Shown piece by piece: positions 2,092 through 40,504 of a stretch of 64,000 nt of DNA. Location: sequence record NC_054927.1. One strand, given 5' to 3'. The translations under genes were made by a program, and so were the position numbers. The DNA is from Escherichia phage vB_EcoM_Ozark. The notes under the pieces are model-generated. The model worked only from the letters and a program-made list of their open reading frames with translations. It searched no databases and was not told the DNA's origin. Position 1 is the first letter of the stretch. Each line of letters starts with the position of its first letter.

Positions 2092-3096
2092 TTAACTTAC
2101 CAATTCAATCCAAGCCGGACGAAGTACATCTTGTACCATTTTAACTAATTCCTTTTTAATCAAAGAAGGATTATCCGCTTGAGTTAGAGTAATACCTTCA
2201 CGAGAAGTTTCTTCCAAAATATCTTGAACAGTTAGTCCCATCACCTTTCCAAAATCTTTTGGACCAATTTCGCCAATTTTAGAAATAACGTTATTTACTC
2301 GGTTCAGTGTAACGTAGCAAGCTAAAATTCCCAGCAATTTATTATCAGCTTCTGACAGCTCAACTTTAGCTTTAATAGGCTTATCAGACTTTTTCTTTTC
2401 ACTAAATTTGGAATTCTTGCATTTGATGGCTACACGATTGCCATTAGGCATCCAAGAAGGATAACAAGGTTTCAATACATATCCTTCAGCAGTAAATACT
2501 TCGCCTTTTGCTTCAGCATTCCAAACACATTTATTTGCATCAACTAATCCAGCATGGTCTACTGTAAAATTATAATCTTGAACAACAGAATCTAAATCAT
2601 TTGGCAATTTAATAAGCTCTTCAAATTTACCGCGACCTAAAAGTGGAGCCATTTTAAATTTAAATGTATTACAGAATGATTCCATCATATAATCATCGAC
2701 ATAAGTCACATCACCACTTTCTGTAGTGACAATAATGTCAAATACATAAAAATCTTTATCGCCATAATCAACATTCTTCTGAATGCCAGGTCCAGCGAAT
2801 TCGCCAAAAACTTGATAAGATACAACCGCTGAAGTTTCCATAATATCTTGTACTGCTTTAATGGAATCAGCGTAATTCTTTAGAATAATTTCATACCCAA
2901 AGAAATCTTCAGCAGGAAGAATTGGTCCAGTACGTTTAGCGCAAGTTACTTTATCACGCTCAATAATCAATGAGAAATTTGTGCCGTGAATCTTTTCACG
3001 AGCTACCCACTCCCCACCAGTCAATCCCAGGCTATAAAGTTTTTCAATAAATTTAGAGTTGTAATGATTTTCAAGACTGCTATACTTTTTAAACAT
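2092..3096 (-). CDS. rnlB: RNA ligase 2
   Basis: 334 aa; KIHGTN nucleotidyltransferase lysine motif; matches remembered T4 Rnl2. Confidence 0.9.
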
Positions 3097-3105
3097 AATT
3101 AATCC

Positions 3106-3384
3106 TCAAAATGTAATTTCTAACCAATCACCATCACGCTGATCACTATTGACTTTAAAGCTAAATCCTTCTTTTCTCAGCCAATCACCAATTTCTTCAG
3201 TAATCAATTTATCACGAGCAATACAATAATAATTAAAATGTGTTTTACCTTGTTCAGCTGCTTTATTAGCAAGTTCCGAAAAATCTTTAATAAAACATTC
3301 TAGCTTAAACTGTTTACTTTTGAATGCTTTTTCGCGTAATTGATTAGCAAAAGATGCATTTTCATAAAGATCATACTGTTCCAT
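3106..3384 (-). CDS. Hypothetical protein (position of T4 24.2)
   Basis: 92-aa ORF with ATG start, packed between rnlB and next gene. Confidence 0.55.
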   Translation of the reverse strand: MEQYDLYENASFANQLREKAFKSKQFKLECFIKDFSELANKAAEQGKTHFNYYCIARDKLITEEIGDWLRKEGFSFKVNSDQRDGDWLEITF

Positions 3385-3586
3385 TTTTCACCTTTTTATT
3401 GATATGTCTTTTTCTATAGACAACTTTTTCTCGAGTTTCAAATTTATTCTTAGCAGTCATAGCTCGAGCCCATAATACAGCCACTTCTTTTGCCTGTAAG
3501 TTTAATTCACGAGCAATTTCAATGAATGACTTTCCAGACTCATGAAGAGTAAACACCACAACCTCAGTTCTCATAATCAATCTCAT
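3371..3586 (-). CDS. Hypothetical small protein with helix-turn-helix-like segment (position of T4 24.3)
   Basis: 71-aa ORF; segment IEIARELNLQAKEVAVLWARA resembles an HTH. Confidence 0.5.
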   Translation of the reverse strand: MRLIMRTEVVVFTLHESGKSFIEIARELNLQAKEVAVLWARAMTAKNKFETREKVVYRKRHINKKVKNGTV

Positions 3587-3675
3587 GTTATCGAGTTGGT
3601 GCCATTATATACATCATTTTCTGATTGTGTTTTGTGTGCTTTCAAAATGAAGAAAGGGGCCGAAGCCCCTTATGA

Positions 3676-4806
3676 TTATGGATAGGTATAGATGATACCA
3701 GTTTCTAAAGCAGTTTTATGAATGATGTATCCATTACGCGATTCTTGAACATCAACTTCTGGATAGTCTTTCATCATCTTCTGAAGAGTGTAACGATGCA
3801 AGTAGTACTTACTATCTGGATCGTCAGTTTTCCAATCTTTACCTTCTTCGGTCATTTTTTGGATTTCATCCATAACCCACCAACCGCACCAGATGTAAGC
3901 TGAAGTACGATGTGGAAGAGGATGAACATAAGGTAATTCACCTTCTGGTTCTGGAGCAACTTTATCAGTTACCTGAACTTGACCTGTTGCTGTAATAGTT
4001 TTGCTATCATAATCAGCAGCAGTAACAGTTGCAGTAACTTCAATAGTTTGACTTCCAACAGATGAAGTATCAACGGTATATACATTAGTTGACCCTTCTA
4101 CAGGAGAAGAATCTTTCTTCCATGAATAAGTAATTTGCGCTTCTTCTGGAGCATCAGTAACATTAGCAGTAAATGTAGCCGAAGCATCTTGCTGAACGTT
4201 AATAGAAGGAGGAGTCAATGTAACCTGTGGATTCATTGTCTTCTTATTAACCGTTAATGATACTTCATTAGAAGTAACTTCCTTTGCATCATAATCAGCC
4301 GCGGTTACTTGGGCTACGCATTTAATTCTTTTTACTCCACTTGTAGTTGGAGTATAGCTAAATGTAGAGTTAGTTTCTCCACCAACTTGTGAATCATCTA
4401 CATACCACTGATACGTAGCAGACGCTCCAACGGGTTGAGAAGCTAAGGCAGCGGTAAATTCAACAGCTGTTCCAATCACTCCAGCAGCAGGACTATCAGG
4501 AGTTACTGCCAAGGTAGTCGTTTGTGTCTTATTTTGAACTGTGATAGTTGTTGTCGCTTCAGCCGTTTCCGGGCCTCCTTCAGAAAGTGTATTTGTTGCA
4601 ACTACTTTAATAGTCTTTTGACCGGCAGGTCCTTTTAGTACATAACTAAAAGTTGCTTCAGCTCCATCTTGTGGAGCATCATCTACAATCCAAGCATATG
4701 TAATAGTTCCGCCTCCAGTTTCACCACTGGGTGTAGCAGTAAACTGCTGAGTCTGATCTATAACTCCAGTAGGTGTTTTAGGAGTTATATCAACTGTAAA
4801 AGCCAT
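3676..4806 (-). CDS. hoc: Highly immunogenic outer capsid protein Hoc
   Basis: 376 aa, T/S-rich repeated Ig-like segments; synteny between 24.x and inh. Confidence 0.85.
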   Translation of the reverse strand: MAFTVDITPKTPTGVIDQTQQFTATPSGETGGGTITYAWIVDDAPQDGAEATFSYVLKGPAGQKTIKVVATNTLSEGGPETAEATTTITVQNKTQTTTLAVTPDSPAAGVIGTAVEFTAALASQPVGASATYQWYVDDSQVGGETNSTFSYTPTTSGVKRIKCVAQVTAADYDAKEVTSNEVSLTVNKKTMNPQVTLTPPSINVQQDASATFTANVTDAPEEAQITYSWKKDSSPVEGSTNVYTVDTSSVGSQTIEVTATVTAADYDSKTITATGQVQVTDKVAPEPEGELPYVHPLPHRTSAYIWCGWWVMDEIQKMTEEGKDWKTDDPDSKYYLHRYTLQKMMKDYPEVDVQESRNGYIIHKTALETGIIYTYP

Positions 4807-31185: not shown

Positions 31186-32773
<1,588 letters not shown>

Positions 32774-32800
32774 AATAAAATGGGCCTTGCGGCCCACTCC

Positions 32801-33303
32801 TTAAAAATATTTTTTAAAACTCATCATAACTTTATCATCAACATCATTATCAATCTGTGCAACAAGGTAAGATGACAGTTCTACTTCTTGTGGCGCGGAT
32901 TGAACATTATCAGAATTAAGATATTCACGAATCCAAGGATATGGGTGTTTAACCGGAGCATCGGTAATTGGGCATGGAAGACCACACTGTTTCATACGAG
33001 ATACAGTTAAGTAATCAATAAAGCTCCACATGCTATTTGTATTTAATCCAGGAACATCGCCATCTTTAAATAAATGAACTGCCCAATCTTTTTCTTGGCG
33101 GTTAACTTCCATGAAAATATCAACTGCTTCTTGTTCACACTCTTGAGCAATTTTAACCCATTCATCGCCATCAGTGCCAAGTTGAAGTTGACGAATAATA
33201 TATTGGGTGCCCTTGAGGTGGAGCTGTTCATCACGAGCAATGAACTTCATAATCTTGGCATTACCTTCCATGATTTCCATGTTCTTATGGAAGTTAAAGG
33301 TAC
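32801..33303 (-). CDS. nrdB: Ribonucleotide reductase small subunit NrdB, exon 2
   Basis: Frame stays open upstream of MEIMEGNAK to ..CTFNFHKN, which aligns with the E. coli R2 FACSFAF region when joined to exon 1. Confidence 0.8.
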
Positions 33304-34394
33304 CGTTATGTTCGATTGAGCTCGCTAATTCTCAACCCGTTCTCTTATGAACTGCTACATATTACTATGCAGACCAGACTATATCACAATCCCAGAGGGA
33401 TTCTCCCCATTTCGAGTCGCTTGACCCTACGTCCGAAGACTAGTCGTTGAACCTTGCTTTGCAATTGTCGCCGTGCCATCGTTTATATGTTGATGGTGAT
33501 AAATCTTTCTTATCACAATATGGACAATTCAATTGAATTCTATTTGGATTTAATTTACATCTGTCATTATGTTTTAGATAAAATCCAGGACCTTTACCAA
33601 TGTGACCGCAGAAATCACATGTGATTTCTTTTTGTGCAGGATGGGTCCCGTTCTTAACCATTTCTAATGTTTTTGCTGATGTTCTTTTCTTATGGTCTTC
33701 TGACAAGAAATGATGTGAACCGTCATTTACCCGTTTTGATTGAGTTTCTGACTGCATTTTACCACCGCAAAATACATGAGTACCTTCTTTTATAGCTGCA
33801 ATATTGCGTTCTTTAACTTTTGCAATATGCTCAGCTTGTTGAAAATTATGTATACCTAATGCAACTCTATTTAAATTAGATTTACGTTGTATTTCACCAC
33901 CTAAAAGATGAAATGTACCATTTTCTATCTTAGATTTAATAGAGGCAATATTTTTAGCTCGTACTTCAGGGATATTAAAAACCTGGATTTCTCTAGATTT
34001 TGCGGCTTTAGAAGCTAATTCAGAAATTTCTTCAGGAGAATATTTCATTCTGAGCTTTATAGCATGACAAGCCTGGTAGTCTTTTTGAGCTAAATGTATA
34101 TCATAATGTTCCTGTATAGAAAGGCACATCAAATTATCTAAATCATTATTTTCACGGTTACCGTCTTTATGATGGATTTCGTATGTTCTTCCATCAGAAT
34201 CTTTAGGTATAGGTCCGTTAGCATCTATCCAAATTTTTCTATAGTTCAATTGTGCATCCTCTTAAAAGTATAATCATATTTATATTATACTAATTAAAGG
34301 TGCAAGCAAAACCTTGGCTGCTAGTTTTCCTATAAAGGACTTTCCAGCAATTAAAGGAGTTTTCGATAAACGTTACCGTTTAAAGGCGCATTTT
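33304..34394 (-). other. Group I intron in nrdB (about 1.09 kb) carrying an endonuclease ORF
   Basis: Exon 1 ends in U at GCGU; intron begins AAAAUGCGCC whose GCGC can pair with exon GCGU (P1 with U-G at splice site); proposed 3' end is a G. Confidence 0.75.
33440..34249 (-). CDS. I-TevIII: Intron-encoded HNH homing endonuclease, full-length I-TevIII-like
   Basis: 269 aa; HNH core EIHHKDGNRENNDLDNL; C-terminal Cys clusters CDFCGH and CPYCDKK; lies wholly inside the intron. Confidence 0.8.
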   Translation of the reverse strand: MNYRKIWIDANGPIPKDSDGRTYEIHHKDGNRENNDLDNLMCLSIQEHYDIHLAQKDYQACHAIKLRMKYSPEEISELASKAAKSREIQVFNIPEVRAKNIASIKSKIENGTFHLLGGEIQRKSNLNRVALGIHNFQQAEHIAKVKERNIAAIKEGTHVFCGGKMQSETQSKRVNDGSHHFLSEDHKKRTSAKTLEMVKNGTHPAQKEITCDFCGHIGKGPGFYLKHNDRCKLNPNRIQLNCPYCDKKDLSPSTYKRWHGDNCKARFND

Positions 34395-35070
34395 ACGCAA
34401 AAGATACATAAAAACGAATAGCTTCCAATGCGTTGATTACATGGAGGCAAAGGTAAAGAGATTTCATTAAAGCACGTTTAGCTTCGGCTTCTTGTTTAAT
34501 AGCTCGGTTTAAACGAAAGACGGCATCAGGAGATTCTTTAGCTAGTTCTACAAATTCTTTAGCATTTTCCCATTCACGAGTCTTAACTAGAACATCATCG
34601 TAATAGCGACCAATGGACTCGGCACGTTTCATAATAGCTTTATCTAATACAATCTCATCAAATACCTTTGACGGATCAGTATAAAGATTTCGCATAATAT
34701 GAGTGTATGAACGACTGTGAATAGTTTCACTAAAAGTCCATGTAGCAACCCATGTATCAAGACTTGGGTCTGAAATTAACGACATAAGTACAGCAGACGG
34801 TGCACGACCCTGAATGCTATCTAGAAGTGATTGATACTTCAGGTTATTAGTAAAAATATCTTGCTGATATTGAGGAAGCTTGTTAAATTGTGCAGCATCC
34901 ATCATCAAGTTTACTTCTTCAGGACGCCAGAAAAATGATAATTGCTTTTCGGTTAAATCTTCAAAAACTTTATGACGTTGAATATCATAACGCGCAATAC
35001 CAAGACCTGAACCAAAAAACATAGGTTCTTTTAAAACATCAACTGGATTTGTATTAAAAACTGTGCTCAT
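34395..35070 (-). CDS. nrdB: Ribonucleotide reductase small subunit NrdB, exon 1
   Basis: 225 codons ending ..LHVINALEAIRFYVSFA, the conserved R2 region; stop follows immediately in the intron. Confidence 0.85.
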
Positions 35071-35121
35071 AAATTTTCCGCTTAGTTAATAGTTGGTGAC
35101 TCGTCCATGAGTCAAATTATA

Positions 35122-37386
35122 TCATAATTTACAGGATGAACAATCTTCAGCTTTTGGAGTTTCTATTTCATAATCATCAGTACCGGAACCATCACGGGTA
35201 TTATGATAATAGAAATTTTTTCCGCCAAAATACCAGAAATACAAAAGGTCATCAATCATTATTGACATTGGAACTTTTCCTTTTGGAAAAATCTGTGGGT
35301 CATAATACGTATTCGCTGAAGCTGATTGACATACCCATTTCAGCATAATAGCTACCTGCGTAAGATAAGGTTTATTACCTTTCTTAGCTAATTTCCATGT
35401 ATAATCATATAGGTCTATGTTATGCTCAATATTGGGCACGACTTGATTAAAGGAACCCTCTTTTGATTCTTTAACAGAGACTGGTCCACGTGGAGGCTCG
35501 ATACCGTTTGTACTGTTAGAAACTTGGGAAGATGACTCACATGGCATAAGTGCTGATAATGTGCTATTACGGATGCCAAAGAGCTTAAGGTCTTCCCGCA
35601 GCGACGACCAGTCACAAACGTATTTTGGAGCTGCGATTTGGTCAATCTTTTTATTGTACCAGTCGATAGGTAATTCGCCTCGAGACCAACGAGTGTCTGA
35701 ATAATATTCGCAAGGTCCTTTTTCTTTGGCGAGCTTAATGGATGCTTTAATGAGTCCATACTGTAATCTCTCAAATAGTTCATGTGTTAAATCGTTAGCA
35801 TCTTCATAAGAAGCAAAGTTACTTGCCAGCCAAGCTGCATAGTTGGTAACACCTACACCGAGGTTACGACGCTTTTTAGCTTTTTCTGCTTCAGGAACTG
35901 GATATCCTTGATAATCCAAAAGATTATCAAGAGCACGAACTTGAACTTCTGCCAATTCATTAATTTTATCTTGGTCTTGCCAGTCAAAATTATCTAGTAC
36001 GAATGCAGAGAGAGTACACAATCCAATTTCAGCATCAGGACTGTTCACATCATTTGTTGGAATAGCAATTTCACAGCACAAGTTACTCTGACGAATAGGT
36101 GCCTTTTCACGAATAAACGGAGTATAGTTATTCGTATTATCAATGAACTGCACATAAATCCTTGCTGTTCCTGAACGTTCAGTCATGAGCAATTCAAATA
36201 GTTCACGGGCTTTAATACGCTTTTTACGAATATTAGGGTCTTTTTCTGCTGCTTCGTATAATTCACGGAAACGGTCTTGGTCTTTAAAATAAGAATAATA
36301 AAGCTCGCCACCCATTTCATGTGGACTGAACAAAGTAATGTAATCGTTCTTTCCGAATCGTTCCATCATCAAATCATTCAGTTGAACACCATAATCCATA
36401 TGACGAATGCGGTTTTCTTCTACGCCTTTGTTATTTTTCAAAACGAGAAGATTTTCAACTTCCAAATGCCAAATAGGATAATAAGCAGTAGCAGCGCCGC
36501 CACGAATTCCACCCTGTGAGCATGATTTAACAGCAGTTTGAAAATGTTTCCAAAAAGGAATAACACCGGTATGGCGTACTTCACCCATGCCAATCTTAGA
36601 ACCTTCGGCACGAATCATACCAACGTTAATACCAATTCCAGCGCGTTTAGAGATATATTCAACAATTGAAGCAGAAGCCTTATTGATAGACTTCAGCGAA
36701 TCACCTGCCTCAATAACAACACATGAACTAAACTGTCGAGTCGGAGTACGGCAACCAGCCATAATAGGAGTTGGCAATGAAATCTGTCGAGTAGATACTG
36801 CTTCATAAAAACGGATAACATGTTTTAGTCTATCAACAGGTTCATCTTGATGCAATGCCATTCCAATAGCCATAAATGCAAACTGCGGAGTTTCATAAAT
36901 TTGACCAGTGGTTTTATCTTTAACTAGATATTTTTCTTTTAATTGCATCGCCCCGGAATAAGTAAATTCCATATCCCGCTCGTGCTTAATTTTTGATTCT
37001 AAAAATGTAATTTCTTCCGCAGAATATTTTGACAATAATTCAGGGTCATATTTCCCTTCATTTACGCAATAAGAAATATGGTCAATAAATGAACGCGGTT
37101 CATACTGCCCGTAAACATGCTTACGAAGAGCAAACATTAAACAGCGTGCAGCTACATATTGATAATCAGGCTCTTCAACCGAAATAGAATTCGCAGCAGC
37201 CTTAATTACAATAGTTTGAATGTCATCAGTGGTCATTCCATCACGGAGATATGATTTAATATTTTCATATAATTCATAAGGATCTACAGATGTTCCTTCA
37301 GCTGCCCAAGATAAAACTTTAATAATTTTTTGTGGGTCAAAGCTCTGAGAAACACCACTACTTTTGATAACATTAATTAATTGCAT
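35122..37386 (-). CDS. nrdA: Ribonucleotide reductase large subunit NrdA
   Basis: 754 aa from ATG (MQLINVIKSSG); class Ia motifs and C-terminal CSSC; track ORF is over-extended upstream. Confidence 0.9.
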   Translation of the reverse strand: MQLINVIKSSGVSQSFDPQKIIKVLSWAAEGTSVDPYELYENIKSYLRDGMTTDDIQTIVIKAAANSISVEEPDYQYVAARCLMFALRKHVYGQYEPRSFIDHISYCVNEGKYDPELLSKYSAEEITFLESKIKHERDMEFTYSGAMQLKEKYLVKDKTTGQIYETPQFAFMAIGMALHQDEPVDRLKHVIRFYEAVSTRQISLPTPIMAGCRTPTRQFSSCVVIEAGDSLKSINKASASIVEYISKRAGIGINVGMIRAEGSKIGMGEVRHTGVIPFWKHFQTAVKSCSQGGIRGGAATAYYPIWHLEVENLLVLKNNKGVEENRIRHMDYGVQLNDLMMERFGKNDYITLFSPHEMGGELYYSYFKDQDRFRELYEAAEKDPNIRKKRIKARELFELLMTERSGTARIYVQFIDNTNNYTPFIREKAPIRQSNLCCEIAIPTNDVNSPDAEIGLCTLSAFVLDNFDWQDQDKINELAEVQVRALDNLLDYQGYPVPEAEKAKKRRNLGVGVTNYAAWLASNFASYEDANDLTHELFERLQYGLIKASIKLAKEKGPCEYYSDTRWSRGELPIDWYNKKIDQIAAPKYVCDWSSLREDLKLFGIRNSTLSALMPCESSSQVSNSTNGIEPPRGPVSVKESKEGSFNQVVPNIEHNIDLYDYTWKLAKKGNKPYLTQVAIMLKWVCQSASANTYYDPQIFPKGKVPMSIMIDDLLYFWYFGGKNFYYHNTRDGSGTDDYEIETPKAEDCSSCKL

Positions 37387-37411
37387 AAGTCCTCTGTAGT
37401 AAGTTACCCCA

Positions 37412-37419
37412 TATAAATA
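37412..37419 (+). promoter_or_regulatory. Late promoter TATAAATA driving the GIY-YIG endonuclease gene
   Basis: Exact TATAAATA 22 nt upstream of ATG 37442, followed by AGGAG RBS. Confidence 0.55.
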
Positions 37420-37441
37420 TAATTTTATATAGGAGAATATA

Positions 37442-38173
37442 ATGAAATCTGGAATATATGCTATTATAAACACTAAAACCAATAAGCACTATATAGGAAG
37501 TGCAATTAATTTTGAAGAACGATGGAAACGACACTTTAAAGATTTAGATAATGGAAATCATCATTCAATAAAGCTGCAGCGTTCTTATAATAAGCATGGG
37601 AAAGATGCTTTCGTATGTAAAATCATAGAAGAACTTCCATACGAAAAATCTATCATTATTGAACGTGAAAATTATTGGATACATGAATATGACTCAAAGG
37701 AAAATGGGTATAATATAGCAGACGCATCGTTTGGGGATACCTTATCTCATCACCCAAGAAAGCAAGAAATCCTTAATAAAATTTCAAATGCAATTAAAAA
37801 TAATAATTCAAAATTATCACCAGAAGAACTTAAGCAAAAACATGGTAGACCTAAAGACATCAAAGGTAAAACTATAGAAGAACACTATGGGTTAGATCGT
37901 GCTATAGAAATAAGCAAAAAGTTCCAAGAAAGAAACGCTGCACTTAATATGAAAGGCATCAATAATCCATATTATGGACAGACACATACCAATGAAGTTA
38001 GAAAACGAATTTCTGACTCACAAAGAGGTAAAAAGAAACCCCATCTAAGAGTAAGTATAGATGGGGTAGAATATCCAACAATAGCAGAAGCTGTGCGTCA
38101 AACCGGAATAAGCAGAAAACTTATATCTAAAAGATGTGCTCTAGATTGTTGGGAATCATATTTATACTGCTAA
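37442..38173 (+). CDS. Free-standing GIY-YIG homing endonuclease, I-TevI-like catalytic domain
   Basis: 243 aa; N-terminal about 100 aa closely resemble remembered I-TevI ([36 protein letters not shown]); C-terminal region has NUMOD-like and HTH-like segments; only plus-strand gene in a 30-kb minus-strand block. Confidence 0.8.
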
Positions 38174-38407
38174 AGTTCTACATTCGTCATATTGTTTTTC
38201 CGTTAAAACAGTAATATCGTAGTAACAGTCAGAAGAAGTTTTAACTGTGGAAATTTTATTATCAAAATACTCACGAGTCATTTTATGAGTATAGTATTTT
38301 TTACCATAAATGGTAATAGGCTGTTCTGGTCCTGGAACTTCTAACTCGCTTGGGTTAGGAAGTGTAAAAAGAACAACGCCAGAAGTATCTTTAAATCGTA
38401 AAATCAT
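38162..38407 (-). CDS. Hypothetical protein immediately downstream of td
   Basis: 81-aa ORF whose ATG overlaps td stop (ATGA); its 3' end overlaps the convergent GIY-YIG gene by 12 nt. Confidence 0.5.
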
Positions 38408-39264
38408 ATTGCCATTTTCCCTTTAATTGCTGGATGCGATTCATAATTTTCAAGGATAAAATCTTTCGGTTTCATGTATTCAGTTAACCAGTAAAGCTGT
38501 GTTTCGGTGTCACAATTTCCAAACTCTATAGGCCAATCAATTTTAAGTTCACATAGTTCTTTAGGCTCACGACGTAAAATTTCTTTACATTGCTCAGTAT
38601 GATTCATATAGATGTGAGTATTACCACCAGAAAATATCAAATCTCCTGGGATAAGATTACACATCTTAGCCACAATATGCGTCAAGGCAGCGTACGAGGC
38701 AATGTTGAATGGCAATCCCAAGAAAACATCTACACTTCTTTGGTACCATTGTAAATCAAGATAACCATTACGCACATTAAACTGATAGAACATATGACAG
38801 GGCGGTAATGCCATTTGATTGATTTCAGCTGGATTCCATGCTGAAACGATTTGACGTCGATCAGTTGGTAATTTTTTAATACGATCAATAGTTTCAACTA
38901 ATTGATCCACACCACCGAAATCACGCCATTGTTTACCGTATATAGGACCAAGTTCACCACTATGATATCCTAGGTCTTTAGCCTGGTTTTCATAGTTATC
39001 GTCCCAAATAGTTTTACCTTGAATAAGACTACCATGAGTGCGAAGACGTAAATCATTAACATTGGTAGAACCGGAAATAAACCATAGAAGCTCAGCAATG
39101 CATGCATTCCAGGCGAGCTTCTTAGTTGTTACTGCAGGAAAACCTTTAGTTAAATCCCAGCGTAATTTAGTACCGAACAAAGCAATTGTTCCTGTGCCTG
39201 TTCGGTCATCGGTTTCATAGCCATTTTCAAAAATGTCTTTAATTAAATCTTGGTATTGTTTCAT
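38404..39264 (-). CDS. td: Thymidylate synthase, intronless
   Basis: Single continuous 286-aa ORF with ThyA motifs (active-site PPCH, DLGPIYG). Confidence 0.92.
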
Positions 39265-39309
39265 TTAGTACCTTATATAAATTATAATACATTTTATGAA
39301 GCTGAATAA

Positions 39310-39669
39310 TCAATACGGTTTAGCATCAAATTTTCTCTCAATTTCAGGTGTGAAATATAATTCTTTACCGCGTTTGGAAAAGCGACCAATAATATGATAA
39401 TTATTCTCATCAAACGTGATATTACCAATATCCATAGCTTTCAACCAAATATCGATATTTCTATCCAGCTTTATGTCAAAATTCCAATACGGAGAACTAT
39501 TACCGAAAATACTACAAGCGGATTCAGTGAAACAGCTACTATAAATCTTGTCTTTAGGAACTACTAATTGATAAACACCTTTAATAAACTGAGGACCTTG
39601 CCATTTTGGCTGTTTCGCGTCTTTTTCTAATAGAATAGGGTAATAATTAAAATTCATATTTTCCGCCAT
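39310..39669 (-). CDS. Hypothetical 119-aa protein inserted between frd and td
   Basis: ATG-initiated ORF 8 nt after frd stop with no clear RBS; no recognisable motif. Confidence 0.5.
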   Translation of the reverse strand: MAENMNFNYYPILLEKDAKQPKWQGPQFIKGVYQLVVPKDKIYSSCFTESACSIFGNSSPYWNFDIKLDRNIDIWLKAMDIGNITFDENNYHIIGRFSKRGKELYFTPEIERKFDAKPY

Positions 39670-39677
39670 GCGTTATT

Positions 39678-40504
<827 letters not shown>

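Follow-up and report, generated by a model that had tools for sequence, protein, structure and literature searches.

Free-standing homing endonucleases shape the recombination boundaries of T-even phages, and I-TevI, encoded within the td intron of T4, is the model GIY-YIG enzyme and is used in engineered nucleases. In collaborative or trans homing, a free-standing endonuclease gene is paired with an intron, as F-CphI is with the psbA intron and MobE with the nrdB intron. The Seg genes of T4 spread by double-strand-break repair with co-conversion of their flanks, and most of them are promoter-less and co-oriented (PMC2988022). Here we describe an open reading frame (ORF) of 243 amino acids from Escherichia phage vB_EcoM_Ozark (NC_054927.1), of which a stretch of 64,000 nucleotides, referred to below as the window, was analysed. 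The ORF lies between nrdA and td and encodes a close relative of I-TevI that lacks two defining features of I-TevI proper, location in an intron and a Cys4 zinc finger. We regard it as a probable free-standing member of the I-TevI clade of homing endonuclease genes; the 787-bp cassette on which it lies occupies the position of nrdA.1, the gene for a DUF4326 protein.

An I-TevI-like gene with its own late promoter

The endonuclease ORF was read from the sequence with an ATG start. An earlier note on this DNA had proposed a free-standing I-TevI-like gene with a late promoter of its own, and this is borne out by the ORF, by the T4-type consensus TATAAATA (position 37412, given in the note as the start of the gene, is the first base of this motif) and by the domain matches. 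Pfam recognized GIY-YIG (E=1.1e-15) and NUMOD3 (E=2e-6), as well as the family I-TevI_DNA-bd (PF20987) at E=2.3e-4 and 21.4 bits, under its gathering score of 27. In a sequence search of the PDB, amino acids 1-98 matched the catalytic domain of I-TevI (1mk0, E=4e-40) and amino acids 156-239 its DNA-binding domain (1i3j, E=2.8e-7), while BLASTP against full-length T4 I-TevI gave 46% identity across 242 amino acids. An AlphaFold model built from 38 homologues (mean predicted local distance difference test score, pLDDT, of 86) superimposed on 1mk0 with a template modelling (TM) score of 0.98, a root-mean-square deviation of 0.6 Å and 69% identity; against 1i3j it gave a fold match at E=1e-3 with 30% identity. 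The GIY-YIG domain and the region made up of NUMOD3 and a helix-turn-helix are separate in the protein and joined by a long linker.

The endonuclease has the complete set of I-TevI catalytic residues: across the alignment of 38 sequences, no substitution occurs at Y17, G19, R27, H31, H40, E76 or N91, and Y6 is almost invariant. The close resemblance of the catalytic domain to that of I-TevI claimed in the earlier note is thus upheld, with all catalytic residues unaltered, whereas its statement that the specificity domain differs from I-TevI needs correction, since this domain is divergent yet homologous (about 30% identity) and has no Cys4 zinc finger. The linker contains no CxC...CxxC motif, and there is no cysteine between residues 60 and 230. 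Searches with Pfam PF22635 (I-TevI_ZnF) and a regular expression were negative in all free-standing members of the clade and positive in the intron-encoded ones.

Nei-Gojobori ratios of nonsynonymous to synonymous divergence (dN/dS), calculated against orthologues from Klebsiella phages and metagenomes, were 0.08-0.13 and alike in the catalytic and DNA-binding halves. Because the catalytic residues are intact and dN/dS is about 0.1, the gene appears to be maintained as a working protein, and we infer that it is a functional homing endonuclease gene of the I-TevI clade with a predicted enzymatic activity. Many phage homing endonuclease genes are defunct, such as that of I-TevIII in T4 (PMC2790892), and nothing more specific than this precedent favors the idea that the window gene is an inactive relic; given the full-length ORF, the invariant catalytic residues, the low dN/dS and the intact promoter and ribosome-binding site, we consider a relic very improbable.

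Within the minus-strand block 15964-45408 (about 29 kb), all other plus-strand ORFs of at least 110 amino acids lie within or across minus-strand ORFs, so that the description of the endonuclease gene as the only plus-strand gene of the block is essentially right. The late promoter motif TATAAATA was present upstream of every free-standing homologue examined. It is abutted and overlapped by a non-coding motif, GTTACCCCATAT, which occurs in the closer homologues and is kept even at 54-56% protein identity; TTACCCCATAT or TTATCCCATAT is retained upstream of TATAAATA in cassettes whose proteins are 54-78% identical. T4 I-TevI has an equivalent arrangement, with the C-rich element CCCTTTAATAAATA and a late promoter, and it represses its own promoter through an operator resembling its homing site (PMC2988022). 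By analogy, a reasonable guess is that GTTACCCCATAT serves as an operator for autorepression.

Two further elements lie in the 5' part of the coding region. On the minus strand, 37463-37488 reads TGCTTAT-N13-TATAAT, which is similar to a T4 MotA-dependent middle promoter and faces nrdA, whose ATG follows about 75 nt farther downstream. It is kept in close cassettes, where its conservation is confounded by coding constraint, and it might drive nrdA transcription after the loss of the upstream nrdA.1 gene. Scans for sigma-70 promoters and terminators around the cassette were at chance level or lower, except for a weak hairpin with 5 bp and G+C pairs (GCACT...AGTGC, 37486-37503), which has T-rich tails on both strands and was flagged as terminator-like on both. 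Terminators have been reported within mobE and segF, at their 5' ends (PMC2988022), and the hairpin is reminiscent of these.

The cassette and nrdA.1 as occupants of one locus

Alignment with the endonuclease-free Tequatroviruses BGP and NR1 delimits the element precisely, as homology breaks off at 37394 and restarts at 38182 (Table 1). The left break falls 8 nt upstream of the nrdA ATG and leaves the GAGGA of nrdA intact; the true start of nrdA is the ATG at 37386 (MQLINVIK...) and not the TTG at 37482 given by the ORF lister. The right break falls 8 nt past the endonuclease stop codon. Between them, the cassette has displaced about 300 bp, comprising nrdA.1 from codon 4 to its end and the last 13 or so codons of nrdA.2. 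The start of nrdA.1 in BGP falls at the position equivalent to the remnant of this gene in the window, and the new C-terminal residues of nrdA.2 come from cassette DNA, with a 12-nt overlap with the 3' end of the endonuclease gene.

Table 1. Coordinates of the cassette, its components and the adjoining genes in the window.
Feature	Coordinates	Strand	Basis
Mobile cassette, 787 bp: late promoter, ribosome-binding site, ORF, 8 nt trailing	37395..38181	+	Junction alignments
Non-coding motif GTTACCCCATAT, abuts and overlaps late promoter	37403..37414	+	Conservation among cassettes
T4-type late promoter consensus TATAAATA	37412..37419	+	Sequence reading
Shine-Dalgarno-like TAGGAGA, 5 nt 5' of endonuclease ATG	37430..37436	+	Sequence reading
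Endonuclease ORF	37442..38173	+	ORF listing, Pfam, PDB match, BLASTP, dN/dS
GIY-YIG catalytic domain, amino acids 1-97 (Y6, Y17, R27, H31, H40, E76, N91 present)	37442..37732	+	AlphaFold/1mk0, alignment
Linker, amino acids 98-170	37733..37951	+	BLASTP against I-TevI; N-terminal part resembles I-TevI linker
NUMOD3 motif, amino acids 171-191, minor-groove-binding helix region	37952..38014	+	Pfam PF07460, E=2e-6; aligned to 1i3j
C-terminal helix-turn-helix DNA-binding module, amino acids 201-238	38042..38155	+	PF20987 sub-threshold; 1i3j sequence and fold match
nrdA.1 remnant, first three codons ATG ACG AAT, at right junction	38182..38190	-	Junction alignment with BGP
nrdA.2 (DUF5496), 81 amino acids instead of 87	38162..38407	-	ORF listing, Pfam, junction alignment
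nrdA, left flank; Shine-Dalgarno GAGGA 37390-37394 kept at cassette boundary	35122..37386	-	ORF listing, junction alignment
td, intronless; equivalent of T4 intron insertion site between 38716 and 38717	38404..39264	-	ORF listing, alignment

The same element is found in another phage genus. In the Klebsiella phages KP179 and KpV477, the segment equivalent to 37392/5-38174 is about 90-93% identical at the nucleotide level, as against about 72-75% in the flanking nrdA and td genes, and the left junction, between ...GCATAAGTCCTC and TGTAGTAAGTTACCCC, is the same in Klebsiella Jiaodaviruses as in Tequatrovirus. Both the shared junctions and the contrast in identity between cassette and flanks across genera support a discrete mobile cassette, as the earlier note had proposed. 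In KP179 (L015), the endonuclease gene is a mosaic. When its positions 3001-3783 are compared with 37392-38174 of the window, the 5' 349 nt, covering the promoter and catalytic domain, contain 5 mismatches (1.4%; 98.6% identity; synonymous divergence, dS, 0.02), and the 3' 434 nt, covering the linker and DNA-binding region, contain 51 (11.8%; about 88% identity; dS 0.53). This contrast suggests recombination at the domain boundary between the versions of the gene found in E. coli and Klebsiella phages.

Across the Straboviridae, a single locus is occupied either by the endonuclease gene or by nrdA.1. In Tequatrovirus, seven other records have the cassette in the same position and 492 have nrdA.1 at 95% identity or more; the eight cassette copies, that of the window included, differ by just 2-10 nt in 787. 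About 21 records of Klebsiella Jiaodavirus phages have the cassette, with a protein 88-93% identical to that of the window, and those without it (KP185, JD18 and most of the 146 records) have a DUF4326 nrdA.1 homologue and a small ORF. In the Acinetobacter Lazarusviruses, which belong to a different subfamily, a homologue of about 47% identity sits in the same place and orientation in 6 records, and the remaining 32 of the 38 have NrdA.1/DUF4326 and a small ORF instead. Metagenomic homologues (54-78% identity) all lie between nrdA and td in the antisense orientation, each with TATAAATA. Members of the group situated between nrdA and td start 53-82 nt from the start of nrdA, with the exception of KP179, where an insert of about 250 nt intervenes, and their right junction is variable. 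The cassette-bearing Tequatroviruses themselves have diverse backgrounds: a td intron with I-TevI in TB004, sutha, RPN226 and LH2, an ORF-less td intron in N2 and CJY920, no td intron in ECO07P5 and the window, three different alleles of the td 3' end, and different occupants of the nrdA/nrdB region. Such sporadic presence and absence across genera looks like the comparative footprint of mobility.

A near-isogenic pair of phages offers a view of what may be natural conversion at this locus. ECO07P5 (L001), with the cassette, and ECO07P4 (L026), without it, come from one study and one host, and differ by 12 substitutions over 8.3 kb of flanking sequence, 9 of which lie within 215 nt of the cassette. 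The left flank has 2 mismatches in 4095 nt, at -173 and -215; the right flank (4228 nt) has mismatches at +6, 38, 47, 143, 145, 161 and 164, and the next only at +3722. The tract ends inside nrdA.2, and td is identical in the two phages. At the tract sites, ECO07P5 has the alleles of other cassette-bearing phages, whereas DCP2, an independent cassette-free phage, has the ECO07P4 alleles at all of them and an identical nrdA.1 segment. Since DCP2 has the ECO07P4 haplotype, the cassette-bearing state is derived by parsimony. The tract from -215 to +164 would be the footprint expected of gene conversion initiated by a break, with about 200 bp of co-conversion on each side, and the two phages provide a ready-made donor and recipient for homing assays and target mapping.

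Location of the target

As a genome that carries the cassette must resist its own enzyme, we looked for the target among the consistent differences between cassette-bearing and cassette-free genomes. In its right flank, from 38182 through td, the window agrees with NR1, with BGP or with both at every position, and the window td is 100% identical to that of these endonuclease-free phages across the region of the I-TevI homing site. Over 1.4 kb of nrdA, no single-nucleotide polymorphism (SNP) separates the eight cassette-bearing genomes from cassette-free ones, and an immunity polymorphism in nrdA was dropped as a candidate for this reason. Two SNPs in nrdA.2, at 38219 and 38228, are common to the other seven cassette-bearing phages but not present in the window. 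The sole consistent difference is the nrdA.1 segment of about 300 bp, and the ECO07P5 tract is symmetric and centered on this replaced segment. On these two grounds, the target seems rather more apt to lie in, or to straddle, the nrdA.1 segment than elsewhere. The earlier note, which had named td or nrdA of endonuclease-free relatives as the target, overlooked the replacement of nrdA.1, and among these close relatives neither of its candidates finds support, given the absence of private changes in td, the absence of cassette-specific SNPs in nrdA, and the identity of td in ECO07P5 and ECO07P4.

A competing explanation is that td has remained the target, with cleavage at or near the intron site as for I-TevI, and that the gene spreads with the td region or its intron, by trans or collaborative homing, resistant td alleles being widespread. 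All I-TevI-clade homologues that we examined are inside or beside td: in L023 the homologue is just downstream of td with no nrdA nearby, and in L024 and L025 homologues without a zinc finger lie inside a split td. In addition, homology to I-TevI extends to the DNA-binding region, six of the eight cassette-bearing Tequatroviruses have a td intron (ORF-less in two), and the intron insertion site is about 545 bp from the cassette, within the known range of co-conversion (PMC2790892). Against this, the conversion tract of ECO07P5 stops short of td, the window td has no private change at the homing site, two Jiaodaviruses with and two without the cassette show no fixed td difference near the insertion site, and the cassette is associated with three different td 3' alleles. 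The DNA-binding region is, moreover, just 30% or so identical to that of I-TevI and has no zinc finger. Nor is six of eight a clear enrichment, with td introns in 254 phage records compared to about 520 records matching the locus, and ORF-less td introns are common in phages without the cassette; a special linkage of the cassette to such introns was abandoned on the same counts. The td intron insertion site was likewise dropped as the leading target on the basis of the NR1/BGP and ECO07P5/ECO07P4 comparisons, and we now consider td an unlikely target.

The left junction raises another possibility, that the recognition site is in the conserved 5' end and ribosome-binding region of nrdA and spans this junction, so that the incoming cassette would interrupt the site in the manner of an intron. 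Tequatrovirus and Jiaodavirus share this junction to the nucleotide, right after the conserved ...TTGCATAAGTCCTC, and the distance to the nrdA start is confined to the narrow range given above (KP179 excepted), while the right junction varies. Such a site would still need nrdA.1 bases, so that sequence alone cannot separate it from a site within nrdA.1, and the homologue in L023 has no nrdA nearby; we give this arrangement a low probability. Within nrdA.1, Tequatrovirus and Jiaodavirus agree without a single mismatch in two blocks, GAGCTATTATATCACCATG and ATCTTTACCGACGTAATTTCCCCA (19 and 24 nt). They are candidate recognition sites, to be taken as leads only, the chance probability of the 24-mer being about 0.06 by a rough estimate that assumes about 70% background identity.

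If nrdA.1 is the target, homing could proceed as follows. The gene would be transcribed late in infection from TATAAATA, on the strand opposite to the neighboring early genes, and, when a cassette-free phage infects the same cell, the NUMOD3 and helix-turn-helix region would bind its site in or straddling the nrdA.1 segment. The GIY-YIG domain, tethered by the linker, would then make a staggered double-strand break close by, which would be resected and repaired from the cassette-bearing genome, with replacement of nrdA.1 by the cassette and conversion of about 200 bp of nrdA and nrdA.2 flank on each side. The carrier would be immune since the target segment has been removed. The parts of this scheme that we infer are that the enzyme is active, that its target lies in nrdA.1 and that conversion runs toward the cassette-bearing state.

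Several observations weigh against homing into nrdA.1. The td linkage of every clade member examined, including one without a nearby nrdA, points to td as the ancestral target. The direction of conversion depends on parsimony with a single outgroup, DCP2, and the ECO07P4/ECO07P5 tract could stem from ordinary recombination; T-even phages recombine often, and the SNPs in nrdA show a mosaic pattern that bears this out. If nrdA.1, with its conservation of at least 95% over 492 records, were an efficient target, a cassette frequency of about 1.4% in Tequatrovirus would be low. Lastly, an attempt to predict the target from an operator-like copy in the promoter region gave no match above chance: gapped local alignment of the 47-nt leader with the nrdA.1 segment was no better than with shuffled sequences (420/500 and 483/500), and ungapped 20-mer scans were at chance (82-100 of 100 shuffles) and missed the true site even when run on T4 as a positive control, which makes this approach uninformative in AT-rich DNA.

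The low frequency in Tequatrovirus would also fit a gene that no longer homes, but is kept for the degradation or exclusion of co-infecting phage DNA, or as a DNA-binding regulator, and is moved by ordinary recombination. Strong purifying selection, often lost in pure selfish elements after fixation, and the conserved promoter-proximal motif, which suggests binding of the protein at its own promoter, are in keeping with such a role. However, patchy presence across unrelated backgrounds, transfer across genera and a conversion tract of about 1.2 kb centered on the gene in otherwise identical genomes together form the classic footprint of homing, and we attach little weight to this scenario. We retain homing into the nrdA.1 segment as the preferred interpretation.

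The td gene of the window is one continuous ORF of 286 amino acids, with the endonuclease gene outside it on the opposite strand, confirming that td is intronless. For its last 135 nt or so (38410-38545), Tequatroviruses that are otherwise 97-99% similar have three or more strongly divergent alleles, one type being found in the window, NR1 and BGP, one in T4, ECO07P5 and TB004, and one in LH2; nrdA.2 and td overlap in the window and are separated by about 23-27 nt in the other allele types. Around the insertion site equivalent (38680-38760), synonymous differences from the T4 exon cluster across the I-TevI recognition and cleavage region, for example CAAAGAAGT for CAACGCTCA and GGGATTGCCATTCAACATTGCC for GGGTCTACCGTTTAATATTGCG, in what we take to be the sequence of T4 exon 2. 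Judging from these differences, the td allele common to the window, NR1 and BGP may be resistant to I-TevI. In T4, frd overlaps td directly; in the window, an ORF of 119 amino acids (39310-39669, minus strand; phrog_1928, no Pfam match) lies between the two genes and is also found in NR1, BGP and ECO07P5.

On the other side, the mobE locus is empty, as previously noted, with a gap of 51 nt from the nrdA stop (35122) to the nrdB start (35070). The nrdB gene itself (32801-35070, minus strand) is split into ORFs of 225 (34393..35070) and 159 (32801..33280) amino acids about 1.1 kb apart, and the insert contains a full-length HNH ORF of 269 amino acids (33440..34249; Pfam HNH_3, 6e-13). The insert looks like a group I intron whose I-TevIII-type endonuclease is intact, in contrast to the truncated copy in T4; we draw this from the split ORFs and the HNH insert, since an Rfam search of 32000-40500 for group I introns gave no match at the gathering threshold. 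In two related loci, RPN226 (L011, 1-3087) and L017 (765-3919), it is nrdA that is split into two ORFs by an HNH/NUMOD-type endonuclease ORF, an arrangement that resembles the mobE-split nrdA of Aeromonas phage Aeh1.

Comparison with I-TevI, the Seg genes and collaborative homing

The element described here is a well-delimited case in a known category, has been annotated already and is nothing unexpected in kind. GenBank labels for these genes include 'homing endonuclease', 'I-TevI-like' and 'intron-associated endonuclease 1', and Acinetobacter phages 133 and Ac42 were listed in 2014 as having an I-TevI-like gene (PMC4177764). We found no experimental characterization of these free-standing I-TevI-like genes in the literature searched. 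As to whether an identical gene had already been characterized at this locus, identical or near-identical annotated genes do exist in described phages, but none was found with a characterization. Its interest lies in being a close and naturally zinc-finger-less relative of I-TevI that, judging from sequence comparisons, has a different specificity and has moved between the phage genera of E. coli and of Klebsiella.

The nearest counterparts are the genes of the Klebsiella Jiaodaviruses KpV477, KP179 and PKO111 and of the Acinetobacter phages Kimel, AbTZA1, Ac42 and 133, which belong to the same family and share the locus, the antisense orientation and the late promoter. The Klebsiella copies also share the cassette boundaries. 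The Tequatrovirus copy differs in keeping nrdA.2 between the endonuclease gene and td, and the Acinetobacter proteins are just 47-51% identical to that of the window. In T4 (NC_000866), I-TevI was the sole tblastn match at E<=1e-5, with no Seg match at this threshold, which places the kinship with I-TevI. Like SegA-G of T4, this is a free-standing GIY-YIG gene between phage genes in a T-even phage, but unlike most of them it is antisense with its own late promoter and displaces a gene that does not encode an endonuclease. The replacement of one occupant by another recalls SegH and Hef, which reportedly (Sandegren et al., in 2005) replace mobC and mobE, respectively, in relatives of T4. As in collaborative homing, a free-standing gene lies close enough to a group I intron site for co-conversion, and N2 and CJY920 pair the cassette with an ORF-less td intron; in contrast to such systems, the window td has no intron and td is not the discriminating sequence in our comparisons.

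The window gene resembles I-TevI itself in overall identity (46%, and 69% for the catalytic domain), in the N-terminal segment of the linker, in NUMOD3 and a C-terminal helix-turn-helix, in a late promoter of its own with a C-rich upstream element, and in the association with td. It differs in lying outside an intron and antisense to td, in having a linker with no zinc finger and in a DNA-binding region of about 30% identity, and the td comparisons speak against the td homing site as its target. The cassette coexists with genuine I-TevI in sutha, RPN226, LH2 and TB004, and in L017 and L020, and the two are therefore distinct elements. In a quick neighbor-joining tree with midpoint rooting and without support values, a single clade, made up of the intron-encoded I-TevI proteins with their zinc finger, sits among free-standing clades that lack this finger, and the window protein falls with relatives of the latter type, next to the I-TevI clade. 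The coexistence with genuine I-TevI and the clade-wide link to td bear on the origin of intron-encoded endonucleases. We tentatively propose that a free-standing, zinc-finger-less lineage adjacent to td represents the ancestral state of I-TevI, that the intron enzyme is a later entrant into the td intron that gained its zinc-finger 'ruler', and that the lineage of the window gene was retargeted to nrdA.1, with a module boundary that is still recombining. If this proves true, these phages would contain living intermediates for the Bonocora-Shub model of mobile group I intron formation and a case of natural domain swapping that changes homing specificity.

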